Shown here in pieces: positions 13,639-32,000 of a DNA stretch of 32,000 nt (position 1 is its first letter; each line of letters begins with the position of its first letter). A program made the position numbers and the translations under genes. The stretch comes from Candidatus Electrothrix yaqonensis (GTDB taxonomy: Bacteria > Desulfobacterota > Desulfobulbia > Desulfobulbales > Desulfobulbaceae). The notes under the pieces are model-generated. The model did no database searches, had not been told where the DNA came from, and worked only from the letters and a program-made list of their open reading frames with translations. Location: assembly GCA_047651235.1 (NCBI GenBank), contig CP178758.1, positions 1,740,001 through 1,772,000 of the forward strand, written 5' to 3'.

Positions 13639-14255
13639 GCACCTGCCCGTGCCGGTTCCTGGGCCTCCTCTTTCCATCTGCCGAACATCTTTTTCTCGAC
13701 AATCTCACAGGCCATATGTTCAATCCAGAGATGAACCTCCTGAATGCGGGCAGTGTAATTGGACGGCACATTGAGCACCAGATCGCTGTAGGGAGCCACC
13801 CCGTGTTCCGGGGTAACAGTCCCGCCGGTCAGGGCAACCGTGGTCATCCCGATTTCCCGGGCAGCAGCAAGCGCTTTGACCACATTGGGCGAGGTGCCGG
13901 ACGTGGTGATCCCTATAGCCATATCTTCGGGTTTCCCCAGGGCCTGAACCTGTTTGACAAAAATTACCTCATAGGAAAAATCATTGCCGATGGCGGTCAG
14001 GGTCGAGGAGTCCGTGGTCAGGGCGATGGCTGGCAGGGGGGCTCGGTTGAGCAGAAAGCGGTTGATAAATTCCGCTGCCAGATGCTGGGCATCGGCAGCA
14101 CTGCCGCCGTTGCCGAAAATAAGCAGCTTGCCGCCGTTGTGAAAAACCTCGACGATCCGGTCCGCCAGTGTAATAATTTTGTCTGCAGACTCCTCGACAA
14201 AGGCCTGCTTGGCCGCATTGGACTGCTCCAGACGGGTCAGAATAAATTCATTCAT
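13635..14255 (-). CDS. gmhA: SIS-domain protein of the GmhA/DiaA family (phosphoheptose isomerase or DnaA-initiator-associating type)
   Basis: The sequence carries FGNGGSAADAQHLAAEFINRF, LPAIALTTDSSTLTAIGNDFSYEVIF, GITTSGTSPNVVKAL and ARIQEVH. I cannot separate GmhA from DiaA by eye. Confidence 0.75.
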   Translation of the reverse strand: MNEFILTRLEQSNAAKQAFVEESADKIITLADRIVEVFHNGGKLLIFGNGGSAADAQHLAAEFINRFLLNRAPLPAIALTTDSSTLTAIGNDFSYEVIFVKQVQALGKPEDMAIGITTSGTSPNVVKALAAAREIGMTTVALTGGTVTPEHGVAPYSDLVLNVPSNYTARIQEVHLWIEHMACEIVEKKMFGRWKEEAQEPARAGA

Positions 14256-14366
14256 GCTGTTTGGGCTTGTTTGGGCTATTGTGATGCCGGAAGGGAAAAC
14301 GAAAAGCGCCTCCGCACGGAAGCACGAAAACGCTTTTGGACGAAACGGGGCGTAATTGAGCTGATC

Positions 14367-15041
14367 TCAGGCCAGCTGGCTCAGAAGCTCCTCGGAGATC
14401 TCTTTGATCCCCTTGGATCCATCCACAGAAACCACCTTGACCGCGCCGCTGTTCTTGAAGTAGTTGACCGCAGCCATAGTGCCGGTGTTGTCGTCGTAGT
14501 AGATATCATGACGCTTGCCGATAGCCGTCTCATCCTGGTCGTCATCTCTGGCGCTCAGCTCACCGCCGCAGACCCGGCAGACCAGCTTGCCGTCCTTTTC
14601 CACCGGTTTGATAGCCTCAAAGGCAATGTGGTTGGGATGATTATTGTCGTTGGCGCAGAGCCGGCGCCCCATGATCCGTTCCTTGGCGATCTGGCGGTCC
14701 AGCTGAATCTCGATTACCTCATCCAGAGCCATGCCGGACTCGGTCAGGGCTTTGTCCAGGGCCTCGGCCTGAGCCAGAGAGCGCGGAAAACCGTCCAGCA
14801 GCCAACCCCTTTCCTTGGATTTCTGCAGGGTCTCCAGCACCATAGGGATGGTGATATCATCCGGCACCAAATCACCCTTATCGATATATTCCTTGGCCTT
14901 TTTGCCCAGCTCAGTACCGCCCTTGATATGCTCACGGAAGATAGCGCCGGACTCGATATGATCCAGGCCGTATTTCTCTTTAACAATGGCGCCTTGGGTG
15001 CCCTTGCCGCTGCCGTTCGGTCCGAAGGTAAGAATGTTCAT
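14367..15041 (-). CDS. adk: Adenylate kinase (long-lid type)
   Basis: MNILTFGPNGSGKGTQ is the P-loop. The lid CRVCGGELSARDDD is present and an AAGGAG SD lies 6 nt upstream of the ATG at 15041. The listed ORF start at 15209 is an upstream extension without homology. Confidence 0.95.
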   Translation of the reverse strand: MNILTFGPNGSGKGTQGAIVKEKYGLDHIESGAIFREHIKGGTELGKKAKEYIDKGDLVPDDITIPMVLETLQKSKERGWLLDGFPRSLAQAEALDKALTESGMALDEVIEIQLDRQIAKERIMGRRLCANDNNHPNHIAFEAIKPVEKDGKLVCRVCGGELSARDDDQDETAIGKRHDIYYDDNTGTMAAVNYFKNSGAVKVVSVDGSKGIKEISEELLSQLA

Positions 15042-15352
15042 AGCTGACTCCTTGAAACGTAAACAAAAAAACGAAATAGATAGAAAGAACAGAGCTGTTT
15101 CCTGTTCAGTTGTACACAGTTTTGTACACAGACTACACAGAGGATAACTGGCCGGAAAGCTGTCCCGGTCAGGGGCAATCCGACCCGCTGAGCAACGACT
15201 ATACCGCAACCGACCTGCTTATGCCATGAAAAATATGGCGCATCCTCTGGCAAGCCTTTTGACAACTGCGGCTAAAGAGGGTAAGAAGAGCGAACTTCAT
15301 GCTTTTATGCGGCAGGTAAATATTTTCTAAAATTATCAATAATCATCTTGCT

Positions 15353-16816: not shown

Positions 16817-18088
16817 CTACTTGAGAAGCAACAACAGAAGGATCGGAACTAAAACTATTTTCTTCCTTGTACCGAAAACATATGCCGAGCCGGAACGTGA
16901 GGCCTTGTCGTCGTTTTCTTTAGCACCGATTACTACCGTGTCGCCGGATACGGAGACGCTTCCGCCAAAAAGGTCACCGGCTGCGCCGTCTTCCGCAATA
17001 AGTTTATCCTGCCACGTCCAGGTATCTCCGCTGCGGACAAAGATGTATGCAGAGCCGGGATATTCGTCCTCTCTGCCCTCTCCATAAGCTCCGATTACTG
17101 CCGTGTCGCCGGATACGGAGACGCTACAACCAAAATTGTCGTCAGCTGCACCGTCTTCCGCGACAAGTTTATTCTGCTGCGTCCAGGTATCTCCGGTGCG
17201 AACAAAGACGTATGCCGAGCCGGATCTTGAGCCGTTATCGTCGTCATAGGGAGCACTGATTACTGCCGTATCGCCGGATACGGAGACGCTTCTGCCGAAA
17301 ATGTTGAAGGCTGCGCCGTCTTCCGCGACAAGTTTATTCTGCTGCGTCCAGGTATCTCCGCTGCGGACAAAGACATATGCCGAACCGGAGGATGAGCCCT
17401 TATCATCGTCATAGGGAGCACCGATTACTGCCGTGTCGCCGGATACGGAGACGCTACAACCAAAATTGTCGTCAGCTGCACCGTCTTCCGCGACAAATTT
17501 ATTCTGCTGCGTCCAGGTATCTCCGCTGCGGACGAAGACATATGCCGAACCGGAGGATGAGCCTTTGTCATCGTCATAGTAAGCTCCGATTACTGCCGTA
17601 TCGCCGGATACGGAGACGCTATAGCCGAAAAAGTCGGAGGCTGCGCCGTCTTCCGCGACAAGTTTATCCTGCTGCGTCCAGGTATCTCCGCTGCGAACAA
17701 AGACGTATGCCGAACCGGAGGATGAGCCTTTGTCATCGTCATAGTAAGCTCCGATTACTGCCGTATCGCCGGATACGGAAACGCTATAGCCGAAAATGTC
17801 GGAGGCTGCGCCGTCTTCCGCGACAAGTTTATCCTGCTGCGTCCAGGTATCTCCGCTGCGGACAAAGACATATGCCGAACCGGAGAATGAGCCCTTGTCA
17901 TCGTCTCCGTGAGCACTGATTACTGCCGTGTCGCCGGATACGGAAACGCTATAGCCGAAAAAGTCGGAGGCTGCGCCGTCTTCCGCGACAAGTTTCTGTA
18001 CAGTATCGGGGTCAATGGCGGCCCGAGCCGGACTGATGGCTGCTATAAGCACTGCGATGATAAAGAAAAATCTCAGTTGTGTTTTCAT
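16817..18088 (-). CDS. Secreted seven-bladed FG-GAP (integrin-alpha-like) beta-propeller repeat protein, paralog A
   Basis: The signal peptide is MKTQLRFFFIIAVLIAAISPARA|A. Seven 55-aa units follow the pattern KLVAEDGAAxDxFGxSVSVSGDTAVIGAxxDDDKGSSSGSAYVFVRSGDTWTQQ. The C-terminal tail is IVLVPILLLLLLK and a GGAAGGAGG SD lies upstream. Confidence 0.8.
   Translation of the reverse strand: MKTQLRFFFIIAVLIAAISPARAAIDPDTVQKLVAEDGAASDFFGYSVSVSGDTAVISAHGDDDKGSFSGSAYVFVRSGDTWTQQDKLVAEDGAASDIFGYSVSVSGDTAVIGAYYDDDKGSSSGSAYVFVRSGDTWTQQDKLVAEDGAASDFFGYSVSVSGDTAVIGAYYDDDKGSSSGSAYVFVRSGDTWTQQNKFVAEDGAADDNFGCSVSVSGDTAVIGAPYDDDKGSSSGSAYVFVRSGDTWTQQNKLVAEDGAAFNIFGRSVSVSGDTAVISAPYDDDNGSRSGSAYVFVRTGDTWTQQNKLVAEDGAADDNFGCSVSVSGDTAVIGAYGEGREDEYPGSAYIFVRSGDTWTWQDKLIAEDGAAGDLFGGSVSVSGDTVVIGAKENDDKASRSGSAYVFGTRKKIVLVPILLLLLLK
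16860..17995 (-). repeat. 165-bp tandem coding repeat x7 (FG-GAP blades), up to ~97% DNA identity between neighbours
   Basis: Hand alignment of 17560-17724 against 17725-17889 gives 4 differences in 165 nt. A block gacgctacaaccaaaattgtcgtcagctgcaccgtcttccgcgaca recurs exactly 330 nt apart (~17110 and ~17440). Confidence 0.9.
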
Positions 18089-18303
18089 CCTGTCCTCCTT
18101 CCAGGATTGCAGCGGCAGGGCCGGGGAGGCGGCTGCCGCAAGGTAATCTGTTCAAACAGCACTATGCCTCCTTCAGACCGAAAAAACAAGAGTTTTTATG
18201 GAACACCTCTCCCGGCTCATACTCTCTCCACCCGGCTGCCCACATCTTCAGTGCGCAGCCTCCTTCTCCGGCAGTCCCAAGGTATCCTTGCTGTTCAGCG
18301 GCC

Positions 18304-18395
18304 GGGATCGATGCCCTGGAGGCCATTACTGCTCCCACAGTGAAGATCAGGATGCTGGCGGAGGGGTAAGAGTTTGAAAGAGGGGACGCGGCACT
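18304..18395 (+). pseudogene. Ghost copy of the hom 3' end (last ~21 codons, the stop and ~25 nt downstream)
   Basis: 18305-18369 translates as IDALEAITAPTVKIRMLAEG*, against hom IDALEAITAPTVRIRMLKEE* (16594-16657). DNA identity is about 78% by hand alignment with the same stop position. No hom-like sequence lies upstream of ~18303. Confidence 0.8.
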
Positions 18396-18446
18396 GCCGT
18401 ATCCCCGGTCGAATGATGTTCGAGCCGAATCAGCCCTGCCCCTGCA

Positions 18447-19739
18447 TCACTTGTTGAGCAAAAGGAGGAGATAGATGGCCGGAAGGAAGCCGGGATTGAT
18501 ACTGATGCTGCTGCCAGTACCATAAATATAGGCCGAACCGGCATCGGGAGCGCCATCGTCATCTCCGTACGCCCCGATCAGGACGGTATCACCGTCCACA
18601 GAGACGCTCGCTCCGAAGTAGTCCGCAGCAGCAGGAGAATGAGCAGGCAGTTTGACCTGCTCGTTCCAGGCGGAGCCGCTGCGGGTGAATATATAGGCTG
18701 AGCCGGCATCAGTGTCGCTGCCCGTTCCTATGACGGCGGTATCGCCGTCTACAGCCACACTCAGGCCGAACCGGTCTCCGGCATCAACATCAAAGGCGGT
18801 GAACTTGTCCTGTTCGCTCCAGGCGGAGCCGCTGCGGGTAAAGACATAGACTGAACCGGAATTGGCGCCGTCATCATCGGTCTCAGGTGCCCCGATCAGA
18901 ATCGTCTCACCGTCTACGGAGACGGCAGAGCCGAACTTGTCCCCATGTGCTGTATCTGAGGCGGTCAGCTCCTGCATACTCCAGCTTGAGTCGGTACGGG
19001 TGAATACATAGGCTGAACCGCAGTTTTTACTTGGAGCAGTACAATTGCGGTACGGCACCCCGATCAGGGCTGTATTATCGGACAGGGAAAGGGTAACACC
19101 GAAGCGCTCGTTATCATTGGGGGACGGATTGGCAAGTTCGTCCTGTTCGGTCCACTCCGAGCCGGTACGGGTGAACACATACGCTGATCCCTGGTTCGTG
19201 TGACCGGCGTCATCATCCTTCGGAACGCCGATCAGAGCAGTGCTGCCGGACAAGGATACGCTCTTCCCGAAGTGGTCATTGGCGGAAGGGTCCGGATGAT
19301 AGATTTTGTCCTGCTGAGTCCAGGTACCGTCTGCAGCACGGACAAACACATAGGCAGCACCGGCATCAGTCGTACCGCTGTCTTCTCCATAGGCCCCGAT
19401 CAGGGCAGTATTGCCGTCTACAGATACGCTGAAGCCGAAATAGTCTTCCTCGTCAGGCTGCGGATTGAGGATCTTGGCCTGCCTGATCCACCTCGAGCCG
19501 AAACGGACAAACACATAGGCAGCACCGGCATCAGGGGCGCCTGTGTCGTCTCCATAAGCCCCGATCAGGGCAGTATTCCCGTCCACCGAGACAGAATACC
19601 CTAAGTGGTCCTCTGCAGCTCCGTGATCGGCCAGCAGCTTCTGCACCTTGTCCGGATCAATATCCGCCCGCGCCGGTCCAGTGGTTGCCGTAACTGTGAG
19701 CAACATTAGTGAAAAGAAGAGTCTCGCTTGTATTTTCAT
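18447..19739 (-). CDS. Secreted seven-bladed FG-GAP beta-propeller repeat protein, paralog B (diverged blades)
   Basis: The signal peptide MKIQARLFFSLMLLTVTATTGPARA|D starts at Met24 of the listed ORF (ATG 19739, AAGGA SD). There are seven FGxSVSxxGxTALIGA...GSAYVF...W units. The C-terminal tail is GFLPAIYLLLLLNK. Confidence 0.8.
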   Translation of the reverse strand: MKIQARLFFSLMLLTVTATTGPARADIDPDKVQKLLADHGAAEDHLGYSVSVDGNTALIGAYGDDTGAPDAGAAYVFVRFGSRWIRQAKILNPQPDEEDYFGFSVSVDGNTALIGAYGEDSGTTDAGAAYVFVRAADGTWTQQDKIYHPDPSANDHFGKSVSLSGSTALIGVPKDDDAGHTNQGSAYVFTRTGSEWTEQDELANPSPNDNERFGVTLSLSDNTALIGVPYRNCTAPSKNCGSAYVFTRTDSSWSMQELTASDTAHGDKFGSAVSVDGETILIGAPETDDDGANSGSVYVFTRSGSAWSEQDKFTAFDVDAGDRFGLSVAVDGDTAVIGTGSDTDAGSAYIFTRSGSAWNEQVKLPAHSPAAADYFGASVSVDGDTVLIGAYGDDDGAPDAGSAYIYGTGSSISINPGFLPAIYLLLLLNK

Positions 19740-19770
19740 CCTGTTTTCCTTACAGGTCTGCTGCTGCGGA

Positions 19771-20517
19771 TTAATGGTCCGCAGATTCAATATCCCCTGC
19801 TCCGTCAATCTTCTTTATCACTTCGGAAGGAGTGCCGAAGTAAACAATATCCCCTGCCCCGTCTATTTCGGCATTGAGTACACCGGTAACATGCACTTCG
19901 GCATCCCCTGCCCCGTCGATCCGCACAGTGCATTGCTCAGCAACAAGACCGCTTAATTTCAGATCGCCGCTGCCTGTAAGAACTGCCTCAAGCTCGGCAA
20001 CCTTCCCGGCTGCAGTAATCGAGCCGGAGCCGTCCAGCTGCAGATGAAGCCGGTCTGCGACAACATCCTCCATGACCACATCCGAAACACCGTCAATCTG
20101 CAGGGAAGAGATGTCTTCCGCATTCAGAAAGATCTGCAGCGGCATCTGTGTCGTGATGCTTTTTGTCAGACCGATAAACAGGGTGCTGTTCTCCACCGCT
20201 GTCCGTATTGCCGGAAGTACAGCCTGATCAGCCGTGACAGCCGCATTGCTTTGTCCGTTGCAACGCACTGTCACTTTGCCGGGAAAGTTGTCGATGGCAA
20301 TCGAACGATAAGCAGGAAATTTCCTTGTTTCTGTTTTTGTGACGCCTGTATCCTGTGTCATCTCCCCGGCGCCTCCGTTGACCGAGATAAGAGATACTCC
20401 GCCGGTTGCTGTGTAACTAACTGATCCGGCTTCTAAACATGTACAGGTAAAGAACAGCCCGAACACCATAAGCAGCATAAGCAGCTCTGTCGCCCCAAAG
20501 AACATTCTTTTCTTCAT
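19771..20517 (-). CDS. DUF2807 / head GIN-domain protein (putative adhesin-head-like beta-helix), N-terminal signal or anchor
   Basis: Repeated GSG/GAG-D-hydrophobic rungs are present: LDGSGSITAAG, LTGSGDLKLSG, IDGAGDAEVH, IDGAGDIVYFG and IDGAGDIE. The N-terminus MKKRMFFGATELLMLLMVFGLFF is hydrophobic. Confidence 0.7.
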   Translation of the reverse strand: MKKRMFFGATELLMLLMVFGLFFTCTCLEAGSVSYTATGGVSLISVNGGAGEMTQDTGVTKTETRKFPAYRSIAIDNFPGKVTVRCNGQSNAAVTADQAVLPAIRTAVENSTLFIGLTKSITTQMPLQIFLNAEDISSLQIDGVSDVVMEDVVADRLHLQLDGSGSITAAGKVAELEAVLTGSGDLKLSGLVAEQCTVRIDGAGDAEVHVTGVLNAEIDGAGDIVYFGTPSEVIKKIDGAGDIESADH

Positions 20518-24403: not shown

Positions 24404-24868
24404 ATGGCAGAACAAAAAGGCACGCAGCAGGATCTTCCTGTTTTTCGTATGCAGAAAATGTACATCAAAGATCTCTCTTTTGAGAATCCCAATGCCCCGC
24501 AAATTTTTCTGCCCCAGGGGCAGGAACCCAAGGTTGACTTCAACCTGCGGCTCGGCAATAAAAAAGCAGATGATGACCATTATGAAGTTTCGATCTCCAT
24601 TACAGCCAAAGTGATGGATCAGAAAGCTGACGATACAGTCATGTTTATCCTGGAACTGGAACATGCTGCAATCTTTCTGCTGAAAAATATCCCGGCCGAA
24701 CACATCCCGCGTGTGCTGGCAGTGGATTGCCCTCTGATGCTCTTTCCTTTTACCCGGCAGGTTTCCTCCCAGATTTCCGTAGATGGGGGATTCATGCCGT
24801 TCCTTATGGAACCTATTAATTTTGTTGCTCTGTACGAAAAAGCACAGCAGCAGCAAAAAGACGCATAA
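24404..24868 (+). CDS. secB: Protein-export chaperone SecB
   Basis: FRMQKMYIKDLSFENPNAPQIF resembles the SecB N-terminus. The ORF is 154 aa and AAAGGAG is the SD. Confidence 0.9.
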   Translation: MAEQKGTQQDLPVFRMQKMYIKDLSFENPNAPQIFLPQGQEPKVDFNLRLGNKKADDDHYEVSISITAKVMDQKADDTVMFILELEHAAIFLLKNIPAEHIPRVLAVDCPLMLFPFTRQVSSQISVDGGFMPFLMEPINFVALYEKAQQQQKDA

Positions 24869-24977: not shown

Positions 24978-26012
24978 TCAGGGAAGACCGTACATAACAA
25001 AATTATTCATCAGAGCGGTCGTCGCTTTCCTGATCGCCTGTTCAAACAGAGTATCATATTTGCTCTCGGCCAGTACTGATTCCGGCGCAACCCGGACATC
25101 AACCCGGTTTGTCCAGACGACGCTAGCATCATAGGCACTCTGTACCCAGATACGCATCTGCACAACCGCCTGATCTACCCGACCGCCATGTGCGGCTGCA
25201 CTGCCAAAAGCAGCACCTGCTAATGACCAAGTAATAGCATTAGCACCCTGTCCGCCGCTTATCCCCAAAAAATCGGTTGAGCTGTCCGGATCCCAAGGGC
25301 CTCCGGCATTATTGCCGATAACAGCTCCCCATGTTCCGCCAGCCAGAATATTATCCCAGTTGTCATAGCTGTCAGAAGCTGCAAAACCGAACATCATTCG
25401 GTTTGCCGAACCGATAGCAAAGGGCAGCATTCCCCGTTTCCATGGTGCCCACGTATGTTCCTGTCTGGCCCTGAACTCAAGAATTCGTCCCCGAATAATA
25501 TAGTCAGCGCCGAACTTACGACCGAGCTTCACCACCTCCTGAGAAGTCAGACCGTGTGTGCCGGGACTGTCCGGTGTCGCTGTACTTTGGCTTTCCGTGT
25601 TCAGGTGCTTCATATAGCTCTGCAGCTTGCCCTTCATGGTATCAGACCAGTCAGGATCCTGCAGTTCATAGGCAAGCGAAGCCGAGCCTTCCTTCTCATA
25701 CCGGGAAACGGTGATAATTTTCTGCTCGACCAGATATGCAAAAACGTCTTCCTGAATAGACAGCCCGAAGCCGTTGCTGGTCAGATTATCTGTCAATGAT
25801 TCAGTCACCAGCAAATTACGCCGGTAGGCTGAAGCAATATTATCCCCGTTACTGTAATCGGCAAAAGGAAGAATGACTGCCGTCATACCTTTCCCGCGCG
25901 CCTTGGGATTCACATCGCCAGGAATCATCAGGGTTTCAATACTGGTTTGACCGCAGCCGGCCAGCATACCGATCAATACAATCCCCGTAGACACGTATTT
26001 CAGCAGGTTCAT
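24978..26012 (-). CDS. Outer-membrane lipoprotein with CsgG/HfaB-like architecture and a large Gly/Trp/Ala-rich insert
   Basis: The lipobox is canonical (GMLAG|C, Cys20). AVILPFADYSNG, LVTESLTDNLTSNGF, VFAYLVEQKII, GADYIIRGRILEF and VDQAVVQMRIWV occur in the same order as the conserved CsgG blocks I recall (VSVYNIQDETG, LVTALKDSRWF, NERKII, MVEGSIIGYE, LDQIAVNLRVV). AGGAG is the SD. Confidence 0.5.
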   Translation of the reverse strand: MNLLKYVSTGIVLIGMLAGCGQTSIETLMIPGDVNPKARGKGMTAVILPFADYSNGDNIASAYRRNLLVTESLTDNLTSNGFGLSIQEDVFAYLVEQKIITVSRYEKEGSASLAYELQDPDWSDTMKGKLQSYMKHLNTESQSTATPDSPGTHGLTSQEVVKLGRKFGADYIIRGRILEFRARQEHTWAPWKRGMLPFAIGSANRMMFGFAASDSYDNWDNILAGGTWGAVIGNNAGGPWDPDSSTDFLGISGGQGANAITWSLAGAAFGSAAAHGGRVDQAVVQMRIWVQSAYDASVVWTNRVDVRVAPESVLAESKYDTLFEQAIRKATTALMNNFVMYGLP

Positions 26013-26053: not shown

Positions 26054-28087
26054 TTAAATAACCCGAGGCCGCAGTAAAATAATCAGCTCACGCTTTATAG
26101 TCCGCTTTTCCTCGTATCCGAAAAGATACTTCAGAAAGGGAATATCCTTGGTCCCGGGGACAAAATTTTCTCCTTCCTTAACTTCTATCTCACTGATAAG
26201 ACCGCCGACCACAAGCATTGAGCCGTCCTTGATTTTAACCGTTGTACTCATTTCCCGCATATTCACTACAGGCAGACCTACAGTACCAAGTCCAAAGTCT
26301 CTATATTCGATAGGTTCGCTAAGTTCAGAAGTTATCGGCACCAAGTTCATGACTATCTCGTTATCCCTTTTCACCACAGCTGACAGAGCAAGTCCGACAC
26401 CAGACAATACCTGATCGGTATTGATCGTATAGGCGATCTGGCCGGTATCACTGACTTTTGCTTCTACACTGTCAATATAGGTTACATTCTTCCCTACTGA
26501 AATCAGGGCGGGCTGCCCATTCATCACGCTGAGTTTTGGATTGGAAAGAATGGACGTATGCCCCTGCGTCTGCAGCGCCTTAATAAAATCAGGAAAGCTG
26601 AAACTCGTCAACAAAGAGGCTCCTACGGAAAGAGTTTCCGAGATACCGGTTCCACTGGTAATGATTGTGGCGGCGCTGGTTGCCATATTCAAGGTATCAT
26701 GAAGAAATCCAACTCTTTCATTCAGAATGGTATCACTATCGTAATCAATATTCCTGGGTGAAGTGTACTCGGATTCAAAAGTTCTCTCTATACCGGACGA
26801 TGGGGAAGCTGCTGGAAATGTACCGGACATCTCGTTTTCTATCGTGCCACCTAATTTACCACTATAGGTGTTGCCATCTAATGTATCTGTTGATGATGAC
26901 TCCAGCCCCTCAATTACACCAGTAGTATCATTTCTTAAGCTTGTCTTATCACGTCCAATACTGTTGCGATCTGTATAGGTTGTTCCTACACCTATCTCAC
27001 TCCTGTCGTTGATATCCCTCGTGTACGTTTTCGTTCTGCCGAAGTCGGAATCAGAACGGAACTTCAAGTTATCAAGTATCTGATGCCAATTAACCCCCAG
27101 CGAGGAAGTATCATCCAGCTGCACCTCAATAATCTTCGCTTCAATAACAATCTGCTTGTAGAGTTCCTTCTCAAGAGCAGCAAGATAGTTCTCAATTCTT
27201 TTCTGTAAAGATTTAGGGGCATTAACGGTTATCAGCCCTATGGGTTTATCAATGGTATAAGTAGAGTCAGTAGAAGAAACCCGACGTGATAACTGCGCCG
27301 GAGATGCAGCCTTCTCCTCCCCAGTATCATCTTTCTGGTCTGCCTTCTCCTTGTCTTCGTCTGTTCCGGTTTCAGATGTATCGGGTGTGGTAACACTCGC
27401 ACTCCACGTTGCTATAATACTGTCAATATTTTTTTGAATATTCTCCCAAATATCAAACGTATTACCATCACTGTCGAGCTTTATAATACTCTTAAGTGCT
27501 CCCATCTCATTGTTTGATGAATAATTCTGCTTGATAAAGGGCATGGCAATATGGTACTGCTTGGTCTCCCGGTACTTGATCACCATTGTTGACCCTTCCA
27601 TTTCATGAAAGTAATCCAGCTGCCGAAGAATATTATCAACCGCTTTATAAAAATTATCGTCAGCTGTCACACTTATATCCACAAGAAGATCCTGATCCAC
27701 ATCGCTGGCCCAGCTTAGGCTCATATCCTTATTTCTGACCAGGGCCTTCATCGCCTCTCGGAGCGTAATCGGTTTACGGGTGGTAATATCAGCACCGACT
27801 TTCAGCTCAAACTCATCCGACGACTCGCTGTCCAGCTGAGCATTCATCGCATCATCGTTGATCAGATATCCGGCCTGCCGAAAACGCTTGGGCAGCAGGG
27901 ACGGCTCGATAACCGTGCGCTGATGTCTCTGATCAGCAGCGGAAAGGCGGGCAGGGCGTTCCTGTTTTTCAGTTTTTTTTCCTATACATGAGCAGAGCAG
28001 CAGTGCTGCAACTGCTGCCGTAACCACTCCATGCAACAAACGTATATTGCCTTTCATCATGTCGTCCTTAAAGATTCTCATTGACAC
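26054..28087 (-). CDS. Secretin (PilQ/MshL/GspD superfamily) with a lipoprotein-type signal peptide
   Basis: The N3/secretin junction is IVIEAKIIEVQLDDTSSLGVNW. The secretin core runs FIKALQTQGHTSILSNPKLSVMNGQPALISVG...GLPVVNMREMSTTVKIKDGSMLVVGGLI...IPFLKYLFG...ELIILLRPRVI. The signal is MMKGNIRLLHGVVTAAVAALLLCS|C. The likely start is the ATG at 28060 (AAGGA SD) rather than the GTG at 28087. Confidence 0.85.
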   Translation of the reverse strand: MSMRIFKDDMMKGNIRLLHGVVTAAVAALLLCSCIGKKTEKQERPARLSAADQRHQRTVIEPSLLPKRFRQAGYLINDDAMNAQLDSESSDEFELKVGADITTRKPITLREAMKALVRNKDMSLSWASDVDQDLLVDISVTADDNFYKAVDNILRQLDYFHEMEGSTMVIKYRETKQYHIAMPFIKQNYSSNNEMGALKSIIKLDSDGNTFDIWENIQKNIDSIIATWSASVTTPDTSETGTDEDKEKADQKDDTGEEKAASPAQLSRRVSSTDSTYTIDKPIGLITVNAPKSLQKRIENYLAALEKELYKQIVIEAKIIEVQLDDTSSLGVNWHQILDNLKFRSDSDFGRTKTYTRDINDRSEIGVGTTYTDRNSIGRDKTSLRNDTTGVIEGLESSSTDTLDGNTYSGKLGGTIENEMSGTFPAASPSSGIERTFESEYTSPRNIDYDSDTILNERVGFLHDTLNMATSAATIITSGTGISETLSVGASLLTSFSFPDFIKALQTQGHTSILSNPKLSVMNGQPALISVGKNVTYIDSVEAKVSDTGQIAYTINTDQVLSGVGLALSAVVKRDNEIVMNLVPITSELSEPIEYRDFGLGTVGLPVVNMREMSTTVKIKDGSMLVVGGLISEIEVKEGENFVPGTKDIPFLKYLFGYEEKRTIKRELIILLRPRVI

Positions 28088-28117: not shown

Positions 28118-29782
28118 CTATCTGCCCTGCCCTCTCCCGACTTTTGCCATGATAAATTTTCTTAAATCCGGCGGAACCCGAAATCCGGAATACAGAATCG
28201 CCTTGTAGAGCTTTCGTGCTGCACTATAGTTCCCCTGAGCATCCAGAATACGGGCCTGGGCAATCATGGAATTCAGCGTCTGTCCATACAGCTCCTCAAA
28301 CTTTGCCAGCAGACGCAGGGCCGCATCATACTGTCGCTGCCGCTCACTGAACGCAGCATAGCTGATCAGTGCCTCCTGACTCGGTCTTTCACCGATATTG
28401 ACACTTTGATCAAAATACTGCTGTGCCTGACGGTATTCCTCCATATTGGCATAGCCGACAGCGGCGTTCAGAGCAGCACTGCTGTTTTTCTTATCTGCAG
28501 CAAGTGCCTTTTTCGCAAAAAAGACAGCCTTGGCATTCTGATTAAGTTGTGCAAGATAGATCGATGAAATTTTATTGGCCAATTTACTGTTTTCAGGCCA
28601 GCGGGCAAGGGCTTTTTCATAGAACTGGACAGCGTTTTCCAGTTCGCCTTTTTTTTCCGCTGCTCTTCCGTTGGCGATCAGTTTCTTGGCTTCAAGCTGC
28701 TCCGGCGGGGTATTCTTTTCCTGATCAATAATAATGGCTGTAGTATTTTTTATCTCAACATTCTCCTCAATCTCAAGATCGTCCGGTTTCGGCCAGACAA
28801 ACTCCTGGTCTTTCGGATAGATCACGATAGTATTGTCCCGCTCCATCTTCTTCAGGTCCTTGAGATTTAAAATAATATCAAGAGCAAAATCCCAGGGAAC
28901 ATCATTCAGGGCAAGAGTCAGACTGCCGGAAACCCCCTCAGCCACTACAATATTTTTTCCGGTGATTTCCCGCAGCATCCGAAATACATTATGGAGATCG
29001 ATCTTATAGAAATCTACACTGATCAGCTCACTTTCTCCCGCATTAAGCGTCCGATCTCCGGTGCCGCCGTCTGAACTCCCGCCTGCATCGGCCGAGTTCC
29101 CGGCAACAGCATTCATCGGATCAATCGCCACCACGTGATCATCAATAGAGTTTTTTTCTGAAAACTGCGTGCCGTTGTCCTCCTCGGTCCGGGCAGCATC
29201 AGTTGAATCAGTTGGTTCTGCCGGTTTGCTCACGCCAGTGTCCTCGGAAGTCGGTTCAACTTCAGGGGATTCTTCAACCCTGTCCTCTTCAGCGGATTCC
29301 TGCATTCCTTCCGGGTAAAATTTTTCAACCGTAAGAACAATATCATTCCCTTCCGCTGTTGAACTCCACTGATATTTTTCGGAAAAAGCGAACTCAATAC
29401 TTACCATCTCCGATGTGACATCCTTTATCGCCACCTCAACGCCTCCAACGTCCTTGGGCAGCATGAAACGGTTCCGGTTTTCAATTTCAGCATTACTTAT
29501 ATCTACAGCAATCTTCAGGGGGTCAACCAACCGTTCCACAGAAAAAAAACTTTCCGGCTTTGCAGCGCAAGAAATCGTTATTTTCAGATCTGTTCCGACC
29601 GCTTTTGCACCGAGCCCAGTAACCGCAATTTTCTCCGAAGATGTTTCCTTGTCCGCAGCAGAGACAGATACACTATCTAACTGAAGACCGATGAAAGCGA
29701 GAAGAAAAAATGGAATTAGAAGGAAAGAACCAAAGTTCCCCGGTGTATTATTTCGGCAACTGGAAGAAAAGAAATACAGCAT
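28118..29782 (-). CDS. Signal-peptide protein with AMIN domain, acidic linker, secretin-type N0 (STN-like) domain and C-terminal TPR repeats
   Basis: The AMIN-like block spans aa ~50-155 (LKITISC...PLKIAVDISNAEI...DIVLTVEKF). The D/E/S/T/G-rich linker spans aa ~156-250. The N0-like block is ISVDFYKIDLHNVFRMLREITGKNIVVAEGVSGSLTLALNDVPWDFALDIILNLKDLKKMERDNTIVIYP. The TPR-like region spans aa ~362-535 (AVQFYEKALARWPEN, YRQAQQYFDQS, YSAARKLYKAIL). Confidence 0.7.
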   Translation of the reverse strand: MLYFFSSSCRNNTPGNFGSFLLIPFFLLAFIGLQLDSVSVSAADKETSSEKIAVTGLGAKAVGTDLKITISCAAKPESFFSVERLVDPLKIAVDISNAEIENRNRFMLPKDVGGVEVAIKDVTSEMVSIEFAFSEKYQWSSTAEGNDIVLTVEKFYPEGMQESAEEDRVEESPEVEPTSEDTGVSKPAEPTDSTDAARTEEDNGTQFSEKNSIDDHVVAIDPMNAVAGNSADAGGSSDGGTGDRTLNAGESELISVDFYKIDLHNVFRMLREITGKNIVVAEGVSGSLTLALNDVPWDFALDIILNLKDLKKMERDNTIVIYPKDQEFVWPKPDDLEIEENVEIKNTTAIIIDQEKNTPPEQLEAKKLIANGRAAEKKGELENAVQFYEKALARWPENSKLANKISSIYLAQLNQNAKAVFFAKKALAADKKNSSAALNAAVGYANMEEYRQAQQYFDQSVNIGERPSQEALISYAAFSERQRQYDAALRLLAKFEELYGQTLNSMIAQARILDAQGNYSAARKLYKAILYSGFRVPPDLRKFIMAKVGRGQGR

Positions 29783-29783
29783 G

Positions 29784-30269
29784 TTATTTATCTCCCTCTG
29801 TTCTTAAGCGCATTATTCTCTCTTTGGTAACGATTCTGCCTGATTTTGTCCTGTACGTGTCCGTGAGTTCCACCTGCTTCTCTCTGATCCGCTTGATGAC
29901 CCCATTTCCTATCCGCATCCCTTCGCTCAGATAGTACCCTTTTCCGGTTGCGTCCTCGACCATTGCGATCTTCCTGTTTCCGACACATATCACCCCGACT
30001 AATGTCAAATCTATAGACGCTGCAGGCTGGGGAGGTTCCGGACCGGGAGTTAGGCCCGGCCCACCATTATCTTTAATAAATGGGAGGAAGGGGTCAGGCT
30101 TGTTTTCTTCTATTGTATAGTGAAATGTATCTATGTTCTGCAGCTCCTGTTTTCTTTCTGCTTCCCCGTTCAGTTCTGCCGATCTTGCTTCATCGGCAAA
30201 TCCGATTCCATAACTGAGCAGGATCAGCATAGAGACTGTCTTGCGTAGATTGCAAAAAGAAGATTTCAC
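29784..30269 (-). CDS. pilP: PilP-like periplasmic protein, paralog 2
   Basis: A signal peptide is followed by PDPFLPFIK and a C-terminal beta-sandwich pattern LTLVGVICVGNRKIAMVEDATGKGYYLSEGMRIGNGVIKRIREKQVEL. The start is a GTG with an AAGGAG SD 6 nt upstream. Confidence 0.7.
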   Translation of the reverse strand: MKSSFCNLRKTVSMLILLSYGIGFADEARSAELNGEAERKQELQNIDTFHYTIEENKPDPFLPFIKDNGGPGLTPGPEPPQPAASIDLTLVGVICVGNRKIAMVEDATGKGYYLSEGMRIGNGVIKRIREKQVELTDTYRTKSGRIVTKERIMRLRTEGDK

Positions 30270-30285: not shown

Positions 30286-30813
30286 TTATTTATTATCGCC
30301 CTCTTTCTTTAAACGCATGACAATCTCTTTTGTCATTGTCCTGCCTGTTTTCGTCTTATACGTTTCCGTAATTTCAACCTGTCCGCCTTCGATCCGTCTG
30401 ATCTTCCCGTGCCTTCCTATCAGCATATTTTCATTCAGACGATACCCTTTTCCGGTAACATCCTCTGCCAAGGCTATTTTTTCGTTCCCTACAGACATTA
30501 TCGCAACTAATTTCAGCTGTCCCGGTTCAAACAGCTGCATCCCCCGTAACGGTCTGTTGTTATCATCAACAATTTCATCGCCCTTCTCTACCTGTTGCGT
30601 TGCATCTTTTTTAATAAACGGCAGAAAAGGATCAGGTCTGTTGGCAAACTGATACTCAAACGCCTCGATCTCGCCCGCTACCTGATCATTCCCTATTTCC
30701 ATGCTGTCGTCGGCTTGGTTTTCCGTTGCCTGTACCAGTACCGATACACACAGCAATGCTGCTGCAAACAGAATTGACAGCAAGATTATCTTTTTTTTCG
30801 CTCCGAACTCCAT
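30286..30813 (-). CDS. pilP: PilP-like periplasmic protein, paralog 1
   Basis: A signal peptide is followed by RPDPFLPFIK and LKLVAIMSVGNEKIALAEDVTGKGYRLNENMLIGRHGKIRRIEGGQVEI. Confidence 0.7.
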   Translation of the reverse strand: MEFGAKKKIILLSILFAAALLCVSVLVQATENQADDSMEIGNDQVAGEIEAFEYQFANRPDPFLPFIKKDATQQVEKGDEIVDDNNRPLRGMQLFEPGQLKLVAIMSVGNEKIALAEDVTGKGYRLNENMLIGRHGKIRRIEGGQVEITETYKTKTGRTMTKEIVMRLKKEGDNK

Positions 30814-30938: not shown

Positions 30939-31586
30939 CTATTTCTTCTTCTTTTTCTCTTTTTTATCGGGTGAAGCTGCCTGTTCACCAGTAAAACGGT
31001 AGGTCAGCATATTGCAGGAGGAACTCAGCAGCATTTCTCCTTCCTCTTCCTTGGGAGAACTCATTTTGATATTATCTACCGTGACAATTCTCTCCAGTTT
31101 ACTGACCTGATCCAGAAAGTACCCTACATTATGATACGGTCCGCGAATCTGGATGCTGATCGGAATTTCGGCATAAAAGTCCTTGGGTGTTTCATTTCCG
31201 GGTTTAAAGGTATCGAAGTCAAGACCTGCACTTGTGCCGCGATCCGAAATACTGCTAAGCAGATCAGGAATTTCTTTTTCTTCGGGAAGAACCTTCCTGA
31301 TTTTTTTAAATTTTTCTTCTGTCTCAGCAAGCTCCGCCTTGATTTTCGTTATATTCTTTGCTGCCTTTTCGGCCTTATTCACCTCAACCTGCAGATCGTT
31401 CTCTTTTCTCTCCAACTCTTCAATTTTTTTCATTTTCGGGGAAAAAAACGAAAAATAAAATGCAACAATCAACACGATAAGTATCACTGCAGCGATGGCA
31501 AGTTTGATCTTATCATCAAGCGGGATATACTTTTCCTCAATAAAGGTATCAAATTTTGATGCCGGTTTTTCTTTACCTTTAGCCAT
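30939..31586 (-). CDS. pilO: Type IV pilus inner-membrane alignment protein PilO
   Basis: An N-terminal TM helix (LAIAAVILIVLIVAFYFSFF) is followed by a coiled coil. The sequence also carries IPDLLSSISDRGTSAGLDFDTFKP, IQIRGPYHNVGYFLDQVSKLERIVTV and a Lys-rich tail. Confidence 0.85.
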   Translation of the reverse strand: MAKGKEKPASKFDTFIEEKYIPLDDKIKLAIAAVILIVLIVAFYFSFFSPKMKKIEELERKENDLQVEVNKAEKAAKNITKIKAELAETEEKFKKIRKVLPEEKEIPDLLSSISDRGTSAGLDFDTFKPGNETPKDFYAEIPISIQIRGPYHNVGYFLDQVSKLERIVTVDNIKMSSPKEEEGEMLLSSSCNMLTYRFTGEQAASPDKKEKKKKK

Positions 31587-31588
31587 AG

Positions 31589-32000
31589 TTACTTGCCAGT
31601 TTCCTTGGAAGACTCTTCTTCAGCCGATCCGGGCAGACCGACCGAACAGGACAGGCTGAAGCTTTTAAGCTTTCTTCCCGCATAGTTGGTCTGTGAAGAG
31701 GATGCCAAAGTCACATCAGAAATATATTCCGACTCCTTCAGTTCCTCAAGATATTTTGCGATTGTCCGGTTGTCGAGAGCTATACCGTTCAGTTTCAAAT
31801 CGCTGCCCCCCTGATCAAGACTGGTCAGCCACATCCGTTCGTGAGGAGTAATGCTGGCGACCTCGTCAAGGAGACGCACAGTCAGCACGGATTCTTTTTT
31901 CAGCTTCTTGACGATGGCGATCTGTTTTTCAACAAGTGCCTTCTTTTCTTCCAGTTTTTTGATGTCCTTCAGCACATCCTCCAGTTCGTTTTTTCGTACG
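31589..32000 (-). CDS. pilN: PilN-like protein, 5'-truncated by the window edge (C-terminal ~135 aa)
   Basis: The frame stays open to nt 32000. A coiled coil is followed by LLDEVASITPHERMWLTSLDQGGSDLKLNGIALDNRTIAKYLEELKESEYISDVTL, typical of the PilN C-terminal domain. The stop lies 2 nt before the pilO ATG. Confidence 0.75.
   Translation of the reverse strand, partial: VRKNELEDVLKDIKKLEEKKALVEKQIAIVKKLKKESVLTVRLLDEVASITPHERMWLTSLDQGGSDLKLNGIALDNRTIAKYLEELKESEYISDVTLASSSQTNYAGRKLKSFSLSCSVGLPGSAEEESSKETGK

Follow-up and report, generated by a model that had tools for sequence, protein, structure and literature searches.

What is a type IV pilus operon to do with a protein that has the amino-terminal modules of PilQ, carries tetratricopeptide repeats (TPRs) in place of the pore, and is encoded immediately upstream of a separate secretin? 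The question is raised by a 32,000-nucleotide (nt) stretch of the genome of Candidatus Electrothrix yaqonensis (GenBank assembly GCA_047651235.1, contig CP178758.1, positions 1,740,001 to 1,772,000), referred to here as the window. Type IV pili are suspected to drive the gliding of cable bacteria, and their machinery has not yet been dissected. A minus-strand pilus operon leaves the window at its right edge, with genes in the order pilN, pilO, two copies of pilP, the gene in question, the secretin and a 344-amino-acid (aa) lipoprotein (Table 1). We call X the 554-aa product of the open reading frame (ORF) at 28118–29782(−). X proves to be genuine, a conserved periplasmic protein encoded in the type IV pilus operon of cable bacteria and their relatives, and we propose that it may provide, as a separate polypeptide, functions that PilQ carries within the pore-forming chain.

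The X ORF begins with an ATG 1 nt past the stop codon of the second pilP, preceded by a Shine–Dalgarno ribosome-binding site, GAGGGAGA, and ends with a TAG at 28118; a 30-nt gap follows, and then the start of the secretin in a different frame. The best database match, protein P0001 of the cable bacterium Candidatus Electrothrix sp. YB6, is 100% identical over 85% of the query. Its NCBI gene model has 473 aa and is 81 aa shorter than the X ORF (window 29540–29782(−)), a difference in length that would put its start at V82 and so remove the signal peptide together with the initial third of AMIN. The ATG at 29782 is backed by the family alignment and by P0002 (563 aa, 79% identical), which aligns over its full length.

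Because X sits where pilQ lies in canonical operons, and because JGI names family members ‘type IV pilus assembly protein PilQ’, we considered whether it is a functionless remnant of a decaying pilQ, or a product of misassembly or frameshift. A tblastn search of species-representative genomes returned 401 loci with intact relatives of X; the N0 and TPR domains are strongly conserved, and the C-terminus (...PDLxKFI...) and the position of the stop are the same across the family. The next gene is a complete secretin of its own. We therefore give the remnant explanation next to no credence. Frameshift, fusion and pseudogene readings are ruled out by the stop codon, the frame and the conservation in related loci, in agreement with the sequence-only reading of this DNA, which had held that X is no frameshifted pilQ.

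That reading had divided X into a signal peptide, an AMIN-like domain (nt 29318–29635, aa 50–155), an acidic Ser/Thr/Gly-rich linker of about 95 aa, an N0/STN domain (nt 28808–29032, aa 251–325) and TPRs (nt 28178–28699). The division stands, and all four domain calls were right to within a few residues, with the TPR domain slightly longer than claimed. The signal peptide is read from sequence features, namely an n-region, a hydrophobic stretch (F20–L33) and a cleavage motif, and the AlphaFold2 (AF2) model has a helix at aa 23–33. X has no lipobox cysteine: its sole N-terminal cysteine, C9, lies before the hydrophobic region, and no cysteine is conserved in the family alignment. The linker has 25 acidic (D/E) against 5 basic (K/R) residues, with S, T, G, P, A and N making up 49 of its 95 positions; the AF2 per-residue confidence (predicted local distance difference test, pLDDT) stays below 50 throughout.

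The AMIN domain is divergent. AF2 builds an all-beta domain at aa 52–152 with a pLDDT of about 80–90. The Pfam AMIN model finds no match in X alone at E<0.1, whereas 18 of the 30 aligned family members match PF11741 at the same columns (best 1.7e-17); the family profile also picks up AMIN1 of Myxococcus xanthus PilQ at a domain E of 1.1e-9, and AmiC weakly at 0.0098. We take the AMIN assignment to be correct, as judged from the family profile rather than from the single sequence. For the N0 domain, Pfam STN (PF07660) scores 29.4 bits on X against a gathering cut-off of 28.4 and matches all 30 family members. The PilQ model TIGR02515 aligns at its positions 2–76 with E 1.2e-18, the GspD model doing far worse (0.0075). 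The family profile matches the N0 structure of Neisseria meningitidis PilQ (4ar0; E 1.2e-17), and AF2 folds aa 253–323 into an alpha/beta domain. Profile searches, where the earlier assignments could have failed, thus support both, the AMIN domain by way of the family.

After N0 come TPR helices: AF2 places 11 of them at aa 360–549 with a pLDDT of about 95, and several Pfam TPR models match. Foldseek with the full X model against the PDB returned generic TPR superhelices only (consensus or designed TPR proteins, OGT, APC/C and MamA), and told us nothing about AMIN, N0 or pilotin kinship. The N3 domain (Secretin_N, PF03958) has no match in X, nor has the secretin domain (PF00263) in Pfam; the TIGR02515 match takes up just positions 2–76 of 428, at 67.3 bits against a cut-off of 284.35. 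The claim that X lacks a secretin core is therefore upheld, and the domain order AMIN, STN and C-terminal TPRs in a secreted protein is confirmed by Pfam, AF2 and the profiles together.

The AMIN domain, linker and N0 of PilQ (M. xanthus 3jc8, Pseudomonas aeruginosa 6ve2 and N. meningitidis 4av2) are homologous to and colinear with those of X, at profile E values from 1.6e-35 to 6.5e-18 (M. xanthus 1.6e-35, P. aeruginosa 5.6e-20), and X is likewise encoded directly after pilP in a pilMNOP operon. By these alignments X is a homologue of PilQ's front half, from the last AMIN through the linker to N0, and has TPRs in place of N3 and the secretin core. Since those two parts are absent, X cannot form a pore and is not a PilQ; the JGI name is wrong for this family. 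Databases list more than 1,300 homologues, labelled either with that name or as ‘AMIN domain-containing protein’, ‘tetratricopeptide repeat protein’, ‘Secretin/TonB short N-terminal domain-containing protein’ or ‘hypothetical protein’. Both the ‘PilQ’ misnaming at JGI and the truncated start at NCBI call for correction.

A search of architecture and neighbourhood, proposed with the first description of X, found the same arrangement wherever the contig extends far enough to judge it. Among 80 Desulfobulbales loci that were fetched, all 80 keep the order pilN–pilO–pilP–X–secretin–lipoprotein, and X and the secretin are always separate genes. The operon is headed by pilM, before pilN, in L002, L081, L082 and L084. 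Going by this gene order, X is probably co-transcribed between pilP and the secretin. Mean identity to the window protein among 29 family members from the Desulfobulbales is 80% for N0 and 65% for the TPRs, compared with 32% for AMIN and 13% for the linker, a pattern that fits conserved protein partners for N0 and for the TPR domain.

The wider family shows which parts of X are constant. An exhaustive profile search gave 184 clusters (50% identity) at E<1e-30. About 77 of them are full-length (485 to 839 aa), and their alignment and lengths indicate one to roughly three AMIN domains; several dozen others, of about 320–470 aa, match only the N0 and TPR parts of the profile, and those members that were read consist of N0 and TPRs without AMIN. 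Canonical PilQs (800–1000 aa) rank next and align with X over AMIN and N0 only, in one colinear stretch; one such full-length PilQ, P0234, has the architecture AMIN–STN–Secretin_N–Secretin.

Relatives without AMIN come from Dissulfuribacter thermophilus, Dissulfuribacterales, Dissulfurimicrobium and other Thermodesulfobacteriota. Their loci read pilM-N-O-P, X and secretin (L081), pilP and X (L083, a short contig) or X and secretin (L086, also short), and the distant AMIN-bearing members (L082, L084/L085) have the same gene placement as X. Since the distant AMIN-less relatives retain N0 and TPRs, with pilP upstream and a secretin of the MshL type downstream as far as contigs reach, the conserved core of the family is N0 plus TPR, and AMIN is optional. 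The idea of AMIN, N0 and TPR as one combined unit thus survives in part: all three domains are present in X, and AMIN is not part of the core, given the large subfamily that has only the other two. The conserved unit is an N0–TPR protein paired with an MshL-type liposecretin behind pilMNOP, with AMIN as an add-on.

Other proteins from these searches also carry N0 domains outside a secretin. P0239 has an N-terminal TPR region and four to five STN repeats, P0231 three N0 domains and FecR_C, and P0200 several N0 domains and DUF2135, each without a secretin; P0233 is a minimal N0+TPR protein of 328 aa beside a 502-aa MshL-type secretin (locus L086). Stand-alone N0 modules appear to be a broader theme.

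The partner secretin is not a PilQ. Pfam Secretin matches it at 2.6e-32, and TIGR02519 (MshL) scores 242.8 bits, slightly under its cut-off of 250.2; MshL is the best model in 31 of 31 secretin orthologues (best E 7.8e-84) and again in the partner secretins of distant X relatives (244–265 bits), and NCBI and JGI label the non-cable orthologues MshL. None of the partner secretins tested (the 31 orthologues and the distant partners) has a Secretin_N, AMIN or STN match in Pfam. A lipobox is present in each orthologue read at its N-terminus.

As had been claimed, this secretin has a signal and N-domains of its own. In an AF2 model of its aa 1–345, aa 95–180 form a confident alpha/beta domain (pLDDT 86–91), which is followed by an N3 domain. 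Foldseek with that model found BfpB in the BfpBG complex best (3.8e-7), then N0–N1 of GspD, PilQ, EscC and InvG; the N0 of GspD alone (4jtm) gave a target TM-score of 0.72. By sequence the domain has a weak Pfam TcpQ match and is not PilQ/STN-like. BLASTP and hhalign found no similarity between X and the secretin family, so the N0 of X is not a recent copy of the secretin's own.

The segment from N3 to the core in this secretin (aa 340–500; 26588–27070(−)) is rich in Thr, Ser, Gly and Asp. It spans 120–180 residues in the cable-bacteria clade (Electrothrix, Electronema and near relatives), 37–69 in most other Desulfobulbales orthologues and 104–120 in L066 and L079.

Might the operon then build something other than a pilus, such as an MSHA-like (mannose-sensitive haemagglutinin) device or one like the type II secretion system, exporting for example slime or envelope fibres, with the N0 and TPRs of X serving a role specific to it? 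The secretin is MshL/GspD-like rather than PilQ-like, and those of cable bacteria have a clade-specific expansion. On the other hand, pilM, pilN, pilO and pilP are standard genes of the type IVa pilus kind by Pfam, a PilY1 gene adjoins one distant X locus, and the module is also found in unicellular Desulfobulbales. We think this very unlikely, and it bears on the product of the machine more than on the role of X.

Our hypothesis makes X an accessory subunit of the type IV pilus machine, exported by Sec to the periplasm and not lipidated, which would supply in trans the wall anchoring and PilP coupling of PilQ; our judgement on this proposal is evenly balanced. It is made because X corresponds to the AMIN+N0 half of PilQ and follows pilP, and because the pore has neither a PilQ-type N0 nor an AMIN domain. 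The C-terminal domain of PilP binds the N0 of PilQ (PMC3441751), and the N0 of X would dock there in the same way, linking the inner-membrane PilMNOP alignment complex to the outer-membrane pore. AMIN, where present, would tie the assembly to peptidoglycan on the flexible acidic linker and perhaps direct it to certain places in the wall. The TPRs would keep X attached to the secretin or to the 344-aa lipoprotein encoded with it. In P. aeruginosa, AMIN of PilQ monomers together with PilP brings PilMNOP to septal peptidoglycan, a step that precedes secretin oligomerisation and does not depend on it (PMC5285504). This shows that the AMIN+N0 half can act alone. Every physical interaction in this scheme is one that we infer.

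Three considerations weigh against X working as a PilQ half in trans. Chief among them, PilP might be bound by the N0-type domain that the secretin itself has, which would make the N0 of X redundant. Wall anchoring cannot be the core function, because a whole subfamily has no AMIN. That X replaces missing PilQ modules, finally, is unproven and depends on whether these genomes have a canonical PilQ elsewhere; in a cluster look-up, the closest full-length PilQs carried only Nitrospirota, ‘Deltaproteobacteria’ and Thermodesulfobacteriota metagenome-assembled-genome labels.

The sequence-only reading had given the TPRs a pilotin-like function, and in a wider form X would be a pilotin or assembly chaperone, its TPRs binding the secretin monomer and promoting outer-membrane targeting or oligomerisation while AMIN and N0 merely position it. 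TPR proteins do recur as secretin assembly factors. PilF, PilW, Tgl, TadD and MshN have, as X does, an all-TPR domain and are encoded with secretins; MshN accompanies secretins of the MshL type and TadD those of the RcpA type (PMC10499894). X lies directly upstream of the secretin in all loci, and it has a weak similarity to the PilW model (E 1.3e-8). That similarity is generic: PilW (TIGR02521) reaches 34.7 bits against a cut-off of 154 and Tgl (NF033762) 15.4 against 225, and no pilotin is among the PDB profile matches (E<=0.01) or the top 50 Foldseek matches. X has no lipobox, in contrast to PilF, PilW, Tgl and TadD, which are lipoproteins of the outer membrane and have neither N0 nor AMIN; here the secretin is itself the lipoprotein, as in self-piloting liposecretins, and could well be its own pilot. 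Nor would a pilotin role explain why N0 is so highly conserved. The pilotin role is thus weakly founded and, in our view, unlikely, a transient assembly role for X being possible; X as a pilotin of the PilF/PilW/Tgl kind was rejected on the missing lipobox and the scores under the family cut-offs.

Wall targeting could also be the whole of the task. X would then be a localisation or pre-installation factor that brings PilMNOP, by way of N0 and PilP, to peptidoglycan sites (septa, poles or cell–cell junctions) independently of the pore, its TPRs binding another hub or the 344-aa lipoprotein. In P. aeruginosa, AMIN of the PilQ monomer and PilP are enough to bring PilO to midcell before secretin assembly (PMC5285504); AMIN copies in the X family vary from 0 to about 3 by lineage, as judged from protein lengths and two-domain alignments, suggesting a tunable targeting module, and a conserved lipoprotein is co-encoded. 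Members without AMIN nevertheless keep the gene position and the MshL-type partner, so the core function needs no wall targeting, and we consider this explanation distinctly unlikely. It overlaps with the proposal that X supplies PilQ functions in trans, and the present data separate neither from the other.

Carried further, that proposal would give the Desulfobulbales (cable bacteria included) and related Thermodesulfobacteriota a two-component outer conduit for a type IVa machine, in which the pore is an MshL-like, type IVb-like liposecretin and a separate soluble N0–TPR protein, attached by its TPRs, brings PilP docking and, in most lineages, AMIN targeting. We regard this as a possibility, and lean somewhat against it.

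The AMIN+STN+TPR architecture had been thought undescribed, which is not so: de Souza et al. 2008 (PMC2572700) list it in section 2.2, item (v), as “one or more AMIN domains... STN domain and TPR repeats”, and the organisms in their architecture figure include the delta-proteobacterium MLMS-1 and Geobacter sp. FRC-32. [quoted passage not shown] X shares the architecture of that class; the 2008 account, a single sentence with a generic prediction, includes neither the operon setting nor the pairing with an MshL-type secretin, the core family of N0+TPR proteins without AMIN or the idea of PilP docking. We found no experimental or comparative study of the X family in the searchable literature, including that on cable bacteria and Electrothrix, PilQ, secretins, type IV pili, MshL, Desulfobulbaceae and Desulfobacterota.

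TcpQ, BfpG and DotD are small stand-alone periplasmic partners of the lipoprotein secretins TcpC, BfpB and DotH, N0-like in the case of TcpQ and DotD. They offer a precedent for an accessory polypeptide of this kind, and the partner secretin here is structurally closest to BfpB at its N-terminus and has the weak TcpQ-like match. They differ in having no AMIN or TPRs and in serving type IVb pili or type IVB secretion, and the N0 of X is of the PilQ type. Elsewhere a separate protein ties the secretin to the cell wall, the inner membrane or both, as described for TsaP, FimV, GspA/GspB (ExeAB) and OutB (PMC9239104). Those proteins attach to the wall by LysM or other folds and bind N0 with an HR domain, whereas X carries AMIN and is itself the N0.

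The rhizobial pair RhcC1/RhcC2 is a simple fission of one secretin. Also in rhizobia, the TPR protein Y4yS affects the type III secretin RhcC2 (PMC4311626). Both cases belong to another secretion system, and the pore considered here is of a different secretin subfamily with its own N-domains. In function, X resembles the N-terminal half of PilQ, the stand-alone secretin partners (TcpQ, BfpG and DotD) and the peptidoglycan-anchoring accessories (TsaP, FimV and GspAB/OutB).

Table 1 Features of the pilus operon in the window, in the direction of transcription (positions are those of the 32,000-nt stretch)
Feature	Position	Strand	Basis
pilN, cut by the window end, frame open to the edge	31589..32000	-	Pfam PilN 3.6e-20
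pilO	30939..31586	-	Pfam PilO 1.3e-46
pilP paralogue 1	30286..30813	-	Pfam PilP 1e-12
pilP paralogue 2, directly upstream of X	29784..30269	-	Pfam PilP 2e-6
X, secreted AMIN-N0-TPR protein	28118..29782	-	ORF list and domain searches
X signal peptide, aa 1-42, signal-peptidase-I type, cleavage ...SVSVSA/AD	29657..29782	-	Read from sequence features
X divergent AMIN domain, aa 50-155	29318..29635	-	AF2 and family profile
X acidic, disordered Ser/Thr/Gly-rich linker, aa 156-250	29033..29317	-	pLDDT below 50, composition
X PilQ-type N0/STN domain, aa 251-326	28805..29032	-	Pfam, TIGR02515, PDB profile matches, conservation
X TPR domain, aa 358-549, 11 helices, about 5 TPRs and cap	28136..28711	-	Pfam TPR models, AF2
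Partner secretin, 677-aa MshL-type lipoprotein, lipobox L-C-S-C	26054..28087	-	Pfam, TIGR02519
Secretin's own N0-type domain, aa 95-180, TcpQ/BfpB-like	27548..27805	-	AF2, Foldseek, weak Pfam TcpQ
344-aa lipoprotein, lipobox LAGC, last gene of the module	24978..26012	-	Conserved gene position

Two other parts of the operon deserve comment. The tandem PilP paralogues of the window have 175 and 161 aa; most Desulfobulbales loci have one pilP, and the gene is duplicated also in Electronema and related loci (L006, L008, L010, L012 and L077). One PilP for each N0, that of X and that of the secretin, is conceivable. The 344-aa lipoprotein has no match in Pfam, NCBIfam or PDB sequence searches. Where the contig is long enough, nearly all of the 80 loci have it behind the secretin (L059 does not), and L084, a distant locus, has a homologue at 27% identity (E 2e-13). 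It may be a third partner, either as a pilotin or as an outer-membrane anchor for the TPRs of X.

Beyond the operon, secB lies at 24404–24868(+), convergent to the operon end, and is kept in nearly all of the 80 loci that reach it; the adjacency may be plain synteny, or may reflect a link to export of the operon's secreted products. The G+C content is 0.55–0.59 at 4–20 kb and 0.44–0.49 over the pilus operon (24–32 kb), where GC skew is strongly negative; recent transfer of the operon is unlikely, because it is conserved throughout the order. At 16817–20517(−) lie adjacent genes for two proteins with seven FG-GAP repeats apiece (423 and 453 aa), followed by one for a DUF2807 ‘adhesin head GIN domain’ protein that has a signal peptide, a group that may be a surface or adhesion cluster. 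A 443-aa ORF at 13716–15047(+), overlapping minus-strand ORFs and with no Pfam match at E<1e-5, is a candidate gene only.

To the published architecture we add a strictly kept operon setting, partnership with both an MshL-type liposecretin and a conserved lipoprotein, an N0+TPR core in which AMIN is optional, and a testable model of PilQ function in trans. X is a specialist-level curiosity of type IV pilus architecture with some relevance to cable-bacteria motility; it is not a categorically new system and opens no long-standing question. Its family marks a conserved, uncharacterised three-gene module (N0–TPR protein, MshL-type liposecretin and 344-aa lipoprotein) within the pilus operon of an order of environmental importance, to which the cable bacteria belong. 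Were the trans model true, the two jobs of PilQ, the pore and the coupling to PilP and wall, would be separable by evolution into different polypeptides, and X would offer a natural system for studying the coupling and targeting half without disturbing the pore. A two-component conduit would be the first case of that half of PilQ as an independent subunit, and in filamentous cable bacteria X could then place machines at particular wall sites.

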